The position numbers and the translations under genes are program-made. From positions 3,419-67,418 of the IMG/VR virus record IMGVR_UViG_3300032011_002687: 64,000 nt of DNA; one strand, 5' to 3'. Of the stretch, positions 41,379-43,537 are shown piece after piece; position 1 is the stretch's first letter; each line of letters opens with the position of its first letter. A model generated the notes under the pieces. The model was not told the DNA's origin. It ran no database searches and saw nothing but the letters and a program-made list of their open reading frames with translations. Source of the DNA: a virus.

Positions 41379-42155
41379 TTACGAGTTAAACAACTCATCA
41401 AAAGCATCACCAGTATTACTTACTTTAGATGTTTCGATTTCAGCTACATTTTCTTTAACGGCTTTCTCAGTTGATGATACTTCTGAATTTGTTGTTTCAG
41501 TAGTTTCCCCATCTGGATTTAACCATTCATTCAATACATCTGTCATATCATCATATGATAATTCTTGATATATCTCTGTAATGTCTTGTTGTGCTTTAAC
41601 TTTTTCCAATACTTCAGGTTCATCTGAGATTGGTGTTTGATTAGGTTTTACACGAATGTTAGTTTTAGGATAACTTGCTCCACTCTCTTCTGCAGAGATA
41701 AACTCAACAACCACATCACGACCATTTACTGGGTCTGTAATATCACCATAATCAGGGTCTGCGATTACTGAAAGTAGTTCTTGATAAACTGTCTTTCCAA
41801 ATCCCCAAAACTTCACACCTTGTGATTCTTCACCACGAACAATGACAGGAGCAAAAGTTCTCATTTTTGCTTCAAGTTTGCGTGATAACTGATAATCTTC
41901 CTTATTACCACTTGCTTTTAGTTTTTGAGCAAACTCTTCAATAGGGTCTGGTCTACCAAAAGAAATTGGTGATAAATAAGAGCGATTGCTCAGATTGTAG
42001 TGAAAAAATAATTCAATAAAAGGATTATCTTTATTGAATGAGTAAGGTACGATACGAATTTGAGTTTTACCTGGTTGTGGTTTCCAAAGACTGGAAGTTC
42101 GATTGTTAGTAGTTTGTAACTGCCCGAGGCGTTTTTTTATTGCATTTAAATCCAT
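41379..42155 (-). CDS. Single-stranded DNA-binding protein (T4 gp32-like)
   Basis: WKP..GK..IRIVP, FWGFGKTVY, DITDP..GRD, acidic tail DAFDELFNS. Confidence 0.85.
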   Translation of the reverse strand: MDLNAIKKRLGQLQTTNNRTSSLWKPQPGKTQIRIVPYSFNKDNPFIELFFHYNLSNRSYLSPISFGRPDPIEEFAQKLKASGNKEDYQLSRKLEAKMRTFAPVIVRGEESQGVKFWGFGKTVYQELLSVIADPDYGDITDPVNGRDVVVEFISAEESGASYPKTNIRVKPNQTPISDEPEVLEKVKAQQDITEIYQELSYDDMTDVLNEWLNPDGETTETTNSEVSSTEKAVKENVAEIETSKVSNTGDAFDELFNS

Positions 42156-42208
42156 TTCATATTCTCCATTTGTTTATGTTCATTTTTCATTTGTTAATCA
42201 AGTGTAAC

Positions 42209-42229
42209 CTTGATACAATAATATATATC
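42209..42229 (-). promoter_or_regulatory. Phage-specific promoter motif upstream of ssb
   Basis: Minus strand GATATATATTATTGTATCAAG; 19/20 identical to 42790-42809. Confidence 0.55.
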
Positions 42230-42269
42230 AATTAAGATAGTTAAAATGTAATTTATTTTAGTTTTTTGC

Positions 42270-42341
42270 AAAAAAAAGGTTCGGTCGATATTTTAAGTTT
42301 ATTTATAAGTGGAAACTAAAATTTCGGTTGAACCTTTTTTT
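42270..42341 (-). terminator. Long hairpin intrinsic terminator downstream of candidate ncRNA
   Basis: A7-GGTTC...GAACC-T7 with extended inner stem (ATTTTAGTTT/AAAC-TAAAAT on the minus strand). Confidence 0.7.
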
Positions 42342-42348
42342 AATTAAA

Positions 42349-42760
42349 GAATTTGGGGGATGTAGGATTTGCGATTACCTACAACTTTTAGCTCAGATTT
42401 TATTACTTCATACCTAACATCTACCAGTTACGATAGTTATTCTTAAATGATGGTTAATCATCGTAGAATCGAGTACAACCTCTATGTCATTGCTTTATCT
42501 CTCTGAGTATAGATTAATTCAGCCATTAAGTGGGATTTCAGTTTTACCCTTACCCACAATGAAGTCCAAGAATCGCTCTTGTTTTTTCTAAAAGTACATT
42601 CCAAATTATATGTCTATAAGGACCGTTACACCTCTACAACATTTAGCAGAGTTCCTGTCACCACAACATTTGGTAGATTACCTTATGGGCTTCTAAGTAG
42701 CACCCATTATTCGGTCAATCCCATATTGAGATAATTACTCTCAATACTTTCACAAAATTC
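42349..42760 (-). ncRNA. Candidate large structured non-coding RNA (~410 nt), family unassigned
   Basis: No ORF of 60 aa or more in the ORF track; many local and long-range helices, complementary ends GAAUUU/AAAUUC, own promoter motif (42790-42809) and terminator (42270-42341). Confidence 0.65.
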
Positions 42761-42789
42761 TAAATTGTCAAAAAACTTTGTATCTCAAT

Positions 42790-42809
42790 CTTGATACATT
42801 AATATATAT
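42790..42809 (-). promoter_or_regulatory. Phage-specific promoter motif driving candidate ncRNA
   Basis: Minus strand ATATATATTAATGTATCAAG, near-identical copy of the ssb upstream motif. Confidence 0.55.
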
Positions 42810-42922
42810 GTATATAAATTCCCAAAATACATTTTTTTTTCAAAAAAAGTAAAAAAAGTTGATATTTATTGTTAATTAACCGATTATGAGTTAATTTCAA
42901 CGCGTTATCTCAGGAGTTTAGT

Positions 42923-43117
42923 ATGAAAACAATACTAACTGGTATACTTTCTTTATTTATTTTCTTTGGAGCAGTTCCGCAAGTGAATGCTATGGATATG
43001 AAAATGGATAATATGGAAGAAGTCAAGAAGAAGAAAAAGAAGAAAAAGAAACTTGGTGGAAGTAAAGGTAAGAAATCTAAAAAAGGGTTCTTTTCTAAAA
43101 TCTTTGGAAGTAAGTAA
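42923..43117 (+). CDS. Small exported lysine-rich cationic protein
   Basis: CAGGAG RBS, signal peptide ending VNA, K9 tract, amphipathic GFFSKIFG tail; GATATTTATT motif at 42861. Confidence 0.75.
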   Translation: MKTILTGILSLFIFFGAVPQVNAMDMKMDNMEEVKKKKKKKKKLGGSKGKKSKKGFFSKIFGSK

Positions 43118-43129
43118 TCTTCAATAAAT

Positions 43130-43161
43130 AAAAAAGGGGAATGTTTAGTTCCCCTTTTTTT
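43130..43161. terminator. Bidirectional intrinsic terminator
   Basis: AAAAAAGGGGAA-loop-TTCCCCTTTTTTT between convergent genes. Confidence 0.88.
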
Positions 43162-43168
43162 GTGCCCC

Positions 43169-43537
43169 CTACTGAAAAATTATTGGAAGTTTGAATCTTA
43201 CTTTTACTGGTCTACCATTTTGTGTTGCAGGTTTGTACTTGGTTTGTTTTACTTTATCAATTACTACTTCATTTAACTCAACATTAAATGTGTCTATTAC
43301 GATTGGATTTTCTACTTCACCATTCTCATTTATTTCAAATTCAACTTCCACTTTTCCAACTGGTTTTATTATACTTGGTGGGAGGTCAAACTCATATAAT
43401 TCAAATGGCCTAATAGGTTGTGGGATTTCAGAATTATTATTCTGCCTATTCCAATCCTCTTGGACTTCAAGGTCTATCTCGGTTAATTGAGCATATAAAG
43501 GTAATTGTAATAAGAGTAAACAAAAGAGTCGCTTCAT
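43169..43537 (-). CDS. TonB C-terminal domain protein (energy transducer TonB-like)
   Basis: Signal peptide; GKVEVEFEINENGEV...KYKPATQNGRPVKVRFKLPIIF. Confidence 0.85.
   Translation of the reverse strand: MKRLFCLLLLQLPLYAQLTEIDLEVQEDWNRQNNNSEIPQPIRPFELYEFDLPPSIIKPVGKVEVEFEINENGEVENPIVIDTFNVELNEVVIDKVKQTKYKPATQNGRPVKVRFKLPIIFQ

Follow-up and report, generated by a model that had tools for sequence, protein, structure and literature searches.

What is made from the gap in front of the single-stranded-DNA-binding protein gene of this virus, and does it act as a free RNA or as a switch on the gene that follows? The window, by which we mean the whole stretch of 64,000 nucleotides analyzed, belongs to a 67.4-kb IMG/VR virus record with a completeness of 33% (CheckV). 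Almost all of its genes lie on the minus strand, and it encodes a tail sheath protein, a DNA polymerase, and a ribonucleotide reductase. The gap between 42156 and 43168 is the largest between open reading frames (ORFs) of at least 100 aa in the window, which agrees with an earlier note on this DNA. That note placed a large, structured, and independently transcribed noncoding RNA in the gap, possibly of a new class and comparable in kind to ROOL and GOLLD. 3' of the RNA follow, in this order, a gp32-like single-stranded-DNA-binding protein (the next gene downstream; 41379..42155, minus strand; PF08804, E 1e-12), RecA, a 5'-3' exonuclease, and a DnaB-like helicase.

The other side of the gap is less orderly. 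A plus-strand ORF at 42923-43117 (64 aa, with a hydrophobic N-terminus, a lysine-rich tail, and a ribosome-binding site; no Pfam family) is the sole plausible plus-strand gene nearby, and a two-way terminator lies beside it at 43130-43160. A cassette of about 330 nt carrying this ORF is missing in one relative (L182), where a TonB_C gene abuts the RNA unit. In the window, the corresponding gene (43169-43537, minus strand) encodes a 122-aa phage protein with a TonB C-terminal domain (PF03544, E 1.3e-11), and this domain suggests a gram-negative host.

A search of the whole window against Rfam yielded one match above the cut-off, namely manA (RF01745) at 42558..42357 on the minus strand, with 64.3 bits (E 4.6e-14) against a curated gathering score of 55.2 bits. 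The region therefore belongs to a known family, which entered the literature in 2010 as a candidate riboswitch from marine bacteria and cyanophages (Weinberg et al., PMC2864571), and the idea of a new class, which the note itself had made dependent on the Rfam check, has to be withdrawn. A permissive scan added a second RF01745 match at 42746..42614 (minus strand, 25.9 bits), of which a longer alignment spans 42746..42527 with 37 bits; both values are below the cut-off. As set out below, the strong match comprises an inner module plus the P5 hairpin of an outer one, and the weak match comprises the outer P1-P3. No match to ROOL, GOLLD, OLE, tmRNA, or RNase P was found at the gathering threshold in the window or at E<=10 in 42150-42950. 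Among cultured phages, the closest relative of the gp32 protein is that of Microcystis phage Mel-JY01 (45% aa identity), which shares the gp32-recA-exonuclease-helicase order and gave no manA match; blastn of 42150-42950 against cultured-phage records returned no match either.

Homologues are plentiful among viral contigs. IMG/VR holds at least 598 relatives of the gp32 protein, from which 80 loci were kept, and a whole unit of about 580 nt is common to 34 of these 80 at 68-82% identity. A first alignment of 24 rows combined the window with 23 loci, after six exact duplicates and five short fragments had been left out. A pattern scan of viral contigs then listed 93 unique cores, at least 63 with the RNA and 30 chance matches. 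All RNA-bearing sequences with enough sequence fit a 392-position profile from end to end, and none of the 63 has one half alone. The second alignment (A2) contains the window and 57 nonidentical full-length copies, 58 sequences in total. The short ORFs of the window are open in just 1-4 of the 57 homologues, and a coding reading of the region was rejected on that ground. In cellular genome records, only one of 120 fetched pattern matches is the RNA, the others being chance matches. It sits, complete and together with gp32, on a contig of a metagenome-assembled genome titled Candidatus Pelagibacter sp. TMED203 (L264:4300-4692), probably a contig of phage origin that was sorted into a Pelagibacter bin and thus at most a weak hint of the host.

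The Rfam model handles these relatives poorly. RF01745 matches at E<=0.01 were obtained in 28 of the 50 relatives' records searched (from the 80 loci), 14 of these 28 pass the gathering score, and the outer module never does. The current model thus splits and under-calls the double-core form, and routine annotation would miss or split it.

How, then, is the RNA built? The homologues support a single nested fold, 42746..42357 on the minus strand, in which an outer manA carries a second P1-P2-P3 module on its P4 stem. On A2, pairing is kept in 96.1% of 5333 pair cells, and both sides have changed in 66 of 92 pairs; none of 500 shuffles reaches either value, and sliding the partners by 1-3 columns lowers them to 36-43% and 16-24 pairs. 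In the 24-row alignment, 90.5% of the cells were paired, and double-sided changes were seen in 66 of 118 pairs. RNAalifold, run on this first alignment, independently recovers P0, P4a, P4b, and the pseudoknot, matching the sequence that follows P1 to the far 3' end, and the "linker" to the 3' portion of the downstream match. Read 5' to 3' on the minus strand, the core RNA of about 390 nt (42357..42746), on which Rfam matches, covariation, and RNA-library contigs agree, consists of P1, the 5' strand of P0, P2, P3, P4a, P4i, P4b enclosing P1'-P2'-P3', the pseudoknot strand, the 3' strand of P4a, P5, and the 3' strand of P0.

The outer module begins with the P1 hairpin (42724..42746; TATTGAGA/TCTCAATA), which is 96.8% paired and has changed on both sides in four of seven pairs. 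The long-range closing helix P0 (5' strand 42718..42722, partner 42361..42357) is paired in 100% of the cells (n=58), and its covariation is confined to one position, where a coupled change from G-C to A-U occurs in 8 of the 58 sequences. Between 42601 and 42715 lie the outer P2, with its GAAUAA internal loop, and the outer four-way junction P3 (helices 3-7 of A2). P2b corresponds to ATGGG/CCCAT, and the junction bears the hairpins P3a (GUGGU loop), P3b (variable, and left out of the pair count due to its unreliable alignment), and P3c (GACA loop). P4a (5' strand 42588..42595, partner 42391..42384; ACTTTTAG/CTAAAAGT) is 96.8% paired with six of eight pairs changed on both sides. It is followed by P4i (42567..42581; CAAGA/TCTTG), the counterpart of the canonical P4 tip, which is seen in single-sequence folding and in the complementarity of its loop; counts of its stem on fixed columns (61.8% in the 24 rows, 14 of 58 sequences in A2) are distorted by misalignment and variable loop length.

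P4b (5' strand 42559..42565, partner 42411..42405; ACTTCAT/ATGAAGT; 94.8% paired, four of seven pairs changed on both sides) encloses the inner manA-like module at 42415..42557 (Rfam alignment; A2 helices 10-12 and 14-18). This module contains P1' (GTGGG/CCCAC, with an invariant 18-nt loop), P2', and a four-way junction P3' with P3a', P3b', and P3c'; P3b' has a UAACC loop, and its tip ATGAT/ATCAT is 74.7% paired. It sits on the 3' side of the P4 stem, which thereby becomes a three-way junction. The pseudoknot (CTCAGA/TCTGAG) joins its 3' strand, 42392..42397, to the P2' loop (42507..42502) across P4b. It is 100% paired, and three of its six pairs show double-sided changes (26, 27, and 1 cells), so that the crossing of these two helices, already seen in the note, is borne out by covariation. 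The fold ends at 42357..42382 with the P5 hairpin (42382-42378 with 42366-42362; TGTAGG/CCTACA) and the 3' strand of P0 (42361..42357; A2 helices 19 and 2).

Ten of the 11 paired segments that the note had picked out are real helices, nine of them counted on 58 homologues, and its outermost pair (GAATTT/AAATTC) has complementary counterparts in relatives by a looser duplex test. GACCG/CGGTC, on the other hand, is specific to the window, as its 3' partner is missing in most homologues and it competes with the covarying outer P2. The minus strand, too, was called correctly: G-U cells outnumber A-C cells by 308 to 70, giving 96.1% paired cells for the minus strand against 91.6% for the plus strand. 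The minimum free energy is -95.3 kcal/mol on the minus strand (z -1.53) and -73.9 kcal/mol on the plus strand (z -0.21). Since single-sequence folding energy is only weakly better than chance, covariation carries the case for the fold.

Compared with the family description, much is familiar. The 5' hairpin is present, as is the closing helix around the fold, here spanning about 360 nt. P2 with its GAAUAA internal loop and UAAGG occurs in both modules and covaries, and the P5 hairpin with a conserved loop is followed by the 3' strand of the closing helix (both from the Rfam alignment and helix counts). A four-way junction that covaries is seen in either module, but the two conserved loop types, which one junction holds in canonical manA, are divided, GUGGU lying in the outer four-way junction and UAACC in the inner one. 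The local P4 hairpin of canonical manA is replaced by a three-way junction, onto which the inner module (about 150 nt) is built; as the base of P4 and the P4-tip hairpin are retained, we take this as an elaboration of the family and not as grounds for exclusion. Nor does the RNA lie directly before an ORF as a 5' UTR element: a terminator and a second promoter-like block precede gp32, whose ATG lies about 200 nt past the end of the fold. Nested, tandem, or duplicated manA RNAs are not mentioned in the main texts of PMC2864571 and the 2026 preprint cited below, although their supplements may differ. The region is a manA RNA with an undescribed nested double-core architecture.

The surroundings of the fold resemble those of a transcription unit. 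An A/T-rich promoter-like block (42798..42830, minus strand) is kept in relatives and overlaps one copy of a 20-mer that is found exactly twice in the window (42209-42228 and 42790-42809; 0.17 copies expected by chance). The note was correct about this repeat, whose two copies precede gp32 and the RNA, respectively. The A/T-rich block is a putative promoter; a sigma-70 scan produced no excess of sites (9 versus 12.2 in shuffles). A plus-strand promoter reading of the 20-mer was dropped, since its letters belong to a covarying 5' hairpin and its sites are not conserved in relatives. This hairpin (42780..42797, minus strand, 5-bp stem) directly follows the promoter-like block, and its stem sequences differ among relatives; a folding energy of -3 kcal/mol or better is reached by 51 of the 53 upstream segments, with a mean of -6.0 against -4.2 for shuffles. 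The conserved leader (42747..42779, minus strand) has near-invariant columns and comprises a U-run, the 5' strand of the leader/tail duplex (42760..42755), and a purine-rich stretch. The leader/tail duplexes are lineage specific, with 52 distinct pairs, a mean of -9.8 kcal/mol, and a mean z of -1.9, the test being a looser one than that used for the core.

Downstream of the fold lies a long hairpin like that of an intrinsic terminator, with flanking A-run and U-run (42264..42341, minus strand). The note had called a strong terminator, and the hairpin with its U-run at 42341..42271 indeed reaches -17.9 kcal/mol (z -5.05). Among distinct relatives, 54 of 57 have a hairpin of -10 kcal/mol or better that ends at a T-run, with many different stem sequences. 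The outer stem covaries freely, and the interior (42277-42335; about 16 nt in the 5' arm and 11 nt in the 3' arm) hardly varies within the main lineage and has another sequence elsewhere. This near-invariance might reflect a site for a protein, a signal for processing, or a function on the plus strand; pairing of the interior with the RNA was searched for and gave just short, unconvincing matches.

The second promoter-like block (with the 20-mer at 42209-42228), a 5' hairpin of gp32, and an A-rich leader occupy 42196..42259 on the minus strand, as judged from the repeat and the alignment, and an A/T-rich block is preserved at this place in relatives too. At 42156-42214 (minus strand), the gp32 transcript seems to start with a lineage-variable hairpin; from there to the start codon, its leader is rich in A and unstructured. 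This arrangement resembles the translational operator by which T4 gp32 represses its own mRNA.

RNA libraries contain the region. Words sampled from 41900-42900 were present at 0.47-0.60 in six RNA runs and at 0.91-0.98 in 14 runs guessed to be DNA. Contigs of four RNA runs were mapped to the region, the metatranscriptome matches in X16 and X17 coming from two studies. In X17, a 391-nt contig equals 42355..42745 without a mismatch (depth 12.8). In X16, a 397-nt contig of depth 188 covers 42357..42731, and 22 further letters abut 42357; we take this loose end to be Illumina adapter sequence. A contig in X20 covers 42392..42725 (depth 17.4). Perfect-match gp32 contigs of the same runs have depths of 2.1-5.6, though contig depths cannot rank genes. 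The contig of an oligo-dT run (42390..42843, depth 3.2) extends beyond the putative start and is uninformative, the absence of cover at 42774-43040 in X16, X17, and X20 is not taken as evidence, and short contigs of 90-95% identity with "joints" over 42489-42600 were set aside. Taken together, the contigs hint at the accumulation of a separate RNA, delimited by P1 and P0, that lacks leader and terminator. Their ends are a hint only, because contigs show neither strand nor true ends and DNA may contaminate RNA libraries. The strand call rests on the Rfam match and the G-U versus A-C cells.

A further layer is found in the hairpin loops. The P4i loop (42576..42572) is complementary to the P5 loop (42375..42371), with five of five pairs in 42 of the 58 sequences and four complementary sequence types; the mean of 4.41 pairs exceeds all of 2000 permutations, which reach at most 4.19. 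The outer GUGGU and inner UAACC loops are complementary in nearly all sequences. Both are changed in one lineage (2 of 58), where pairing needs a shifted register that borrows stem bases. This second contact is not established, and neither is one between the inner P3a' and P3c' loops. Covariation cannot separate loop pairing within one molecule from pairing between molecules.

This matters because of what is reported for shorter relatives. According to a July 2026 preprint (10.64898/2026.07.01.735769), manA RNAs of less than 200 nt form closed homo-oligomers in vitro as seen by cryo-EM, namely octamers, decamers, and a 60-subunit cage, in which pentamers are held by L5-L7' and L8-L9' kissing loops. 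The preprint describes L6 as a GNRA loop. From the helix order and this statement on L6, we infer that L5 and L7 are the GUGGUG and UAACCA loops and that L8 and L9 are the loops of P4 and P5. By analogy, the double-core RNA may multimerize as the shorter manA RNAs do in vitro.

We think that a stand-alone, probably end-processed double-core manA RNA, maybe a folded particle or multimer, accounts for these observations better than anything else considered, and we would call it probable rather than secure. One minus-strand RNA would be made from its own promoter-like block, start with a 5' hairpin, and end at its own terminator, and trimming at the ends would leave a stable core of about 390 nt (42746..42357). 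This RNA would be kept as a free-standing molecule instead of a 5' UTR switch, gp32 being promoted separately. In the fold, the pseudoknot anchors the loop of P2' at the P4 junction, and the loops of the P4 tip and P5 are complementary. The RNA would act as a folded particle, possibly a homo-oligomer joined through complementary loops as in shorter manA RNAs. The structured and independently transcribed RNA of the note is upheld to that extent: structure, promoter-like repeat, terminator, and signs of separate accumulation all stand, and only the new class has gone. A bolder version, in which a natural, covalently duplicated manA protomer yields an abundant free RNA that is trimmed and, by means of its three pairs of complementary loops, self-assembles into a multimer or cage made of RNA alone in infected marine bacteria, is one we entertain only tentatively.

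The most serious rival, unlikely in our judgment, is a cis-acting riboswitch or attenuator. On this view, the doubled manA would respond to a ligand or factor and thereby control how often transcription passes the terminator at 42341..42271 and continues into gp32, recA, the 5'-3' exonuclease, and the dnaB-like helicase. In Rfam, manA is classed as cis-regulatory, in line with the riboswitch proposal of Weinberg et al. 2010 (PMC2864571), and the order of aptamer, terminator, and gene on one strand is a classical layout. gp32 is located downstream in 57 of the 63 RNA-bearing sequences among the matches listed (at a distance of 367-470 nt from the pattern in 54 and at a greater one in 3). Moreover, the U-run of the leader is able to pair with the A-run by which the terminator stem is otherwise lengthened, a choice that could work as a switch, and the canonical manA of Prochlorococcus phage P-SSM2 lies 15 nt before an ORF. 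However, gp32 has its own promoter-like block and 5' hairpin, no conserved alternative pairing was found between the 3' part of the fold and the very different terminator stems of relatives, and the contigs stop at the 3' border of the fold and not at the terminator U-run. Furthermore, no manA ligand is named in the available portions of PMC2864571 or the 2026 preprint, and the riboswitch reviews searched do not contain the word manA.

The relatives without the usual arrangement speak to both sides. Of the six other RNA-bearing sequences, two have too little sequence to tell, and the others include those with Hsp20, a methyltransferase, and an unknown protein; the Hsp20 gene (in L111) and the methyltransferase gene (in L169) are inserted after the RNA or replace the genes there. 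In the former (L111:2567-3040), Hsp20/alpha-crystallin instead of gp32 follows the RNA and terminator, and in P-SSM2, hsp20 is located just downstream of manA. Both fit the manA-ibpA association reported in 2010 (PMC2864571), and the switch rival gains from a gene class already linked to manA. It loses with L023, whose gp32 is 83% identical: there, the manA RNA is gone and promoter-like block and terminator lie almost back to back (L023:2268-2400), yet both blocks, the intact gp32 promoter region, and the gene are retained. This relative also has an extra upstream ORF of 111 aa without a Pfam family. Another lineage (gp32 about 68% identical) carries an extra conserved two-hairpin element with a 7-bp enclosing stem between manA RNA and terminator (L157:2937-2998; also in L090, L164, L175, L148, L196, L122, L062, L080, and L055). 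It matches no Rfam family at E<=0.1, and the 151-nt stretch with the element folds at -33.2 kcal/mol (z -2.69).

Much less probable is an RNA for DNA transactions, i.e., an origin or primer transcript or a packaging signal. Position alone favors it, the RNA heading a block of replication and recombination genes with gp32, recA, the exonuclease, the helicase, the DNA polymerase, and ribonucleotide reductase nearby, whereas nothing specific points that way, the fold belongs to a family known from other gene contexts, and L023 demonstrates that the RNA can be missing in a close relative. Two independent tandem manA aptamers, to which the two head-to-tail RF01745 matches might point, are hardly credible at all and were rejected because the covarying P0, P4a, and P4b join both halves; in homologues, the upstream match has no local P4, P5, or 3' closing strand, the downstream match has no 5' closing strand, and no half occurs alone among the at least 63 RNA-bearing sequences.

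Returning to the stand-alone double-core RNA, canonical manA is its nearest known relative. In P-SSM2 (142837-143034), RF01745 scores 181.6 bits over 198 nt, and P4 is a local 38-nt hairpin. Both forms share the 5' hairpin, the closing helix, P2 with GAAUAA and UAAGG, the four-way junction, P5, the GUGGUG-type and UAACCA-type loops, complementary loop pairs, and a marine or phage habitat. Canonical manA measures about 195 nt, whereas the double-core RNA measures about 390 nt, with a second P1-P2-P3 nested on P4, the conserved loops split between modules, an extra pseudoknot, and a next gene that is a terminator and about 200 nt away rather than 15 nt.

The manA homo-oligomers seen by cryo-EM (10.64898/2026.07.01.735769) concern the same family, and by the loop mapping given above, the counterparts of their L5-L7' and L8-L9' pairs are complementary here. 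The L8-L9-like pair also covaries in the double-core RNA. Their chains have less than 200 nt and those of the double-core RNA two cores each; some loop contacts could therefore form within one chain. ROOL, GOLLD, and OLE form RNA-only homo-oligomers and are likewise large, intricately folded, partly phage associated, and without a known biochemical role (PMC12286853). The double-core manA is smaller, belongs to another family, and matches none of them by sequence or model, so that the likeness claimed in the note fails at the level of models and is apt insofar as shorter manA RNAs are reported to form homo-oligomers in vitro, as ROOL, GOLLD, and OLE do.

Since 2010, manA has stood as a riboswitch candidate without a home, and the double-core RNA offers a testable case for a free RNA particle. 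A doubled manA occurs in a widespread marine phage lineage, with at least 63 distinct sequences among the viral contigs listed, and structural work is thereby offered a natural two-core construct. If the particle reading is true, this would be the first manA-class RNA with in situ evidence as a particle and not as a 5' UTR switch. The tandem glycine riboswitch is a last point of reference: it unites two homologous domains in one RNA, side by side and joined by tertiary contacts, for a known ligand. The double-core manA also has two homologous domains per RNA but, unlike the glycine riboswitch, nests one of them in the stem of the other.
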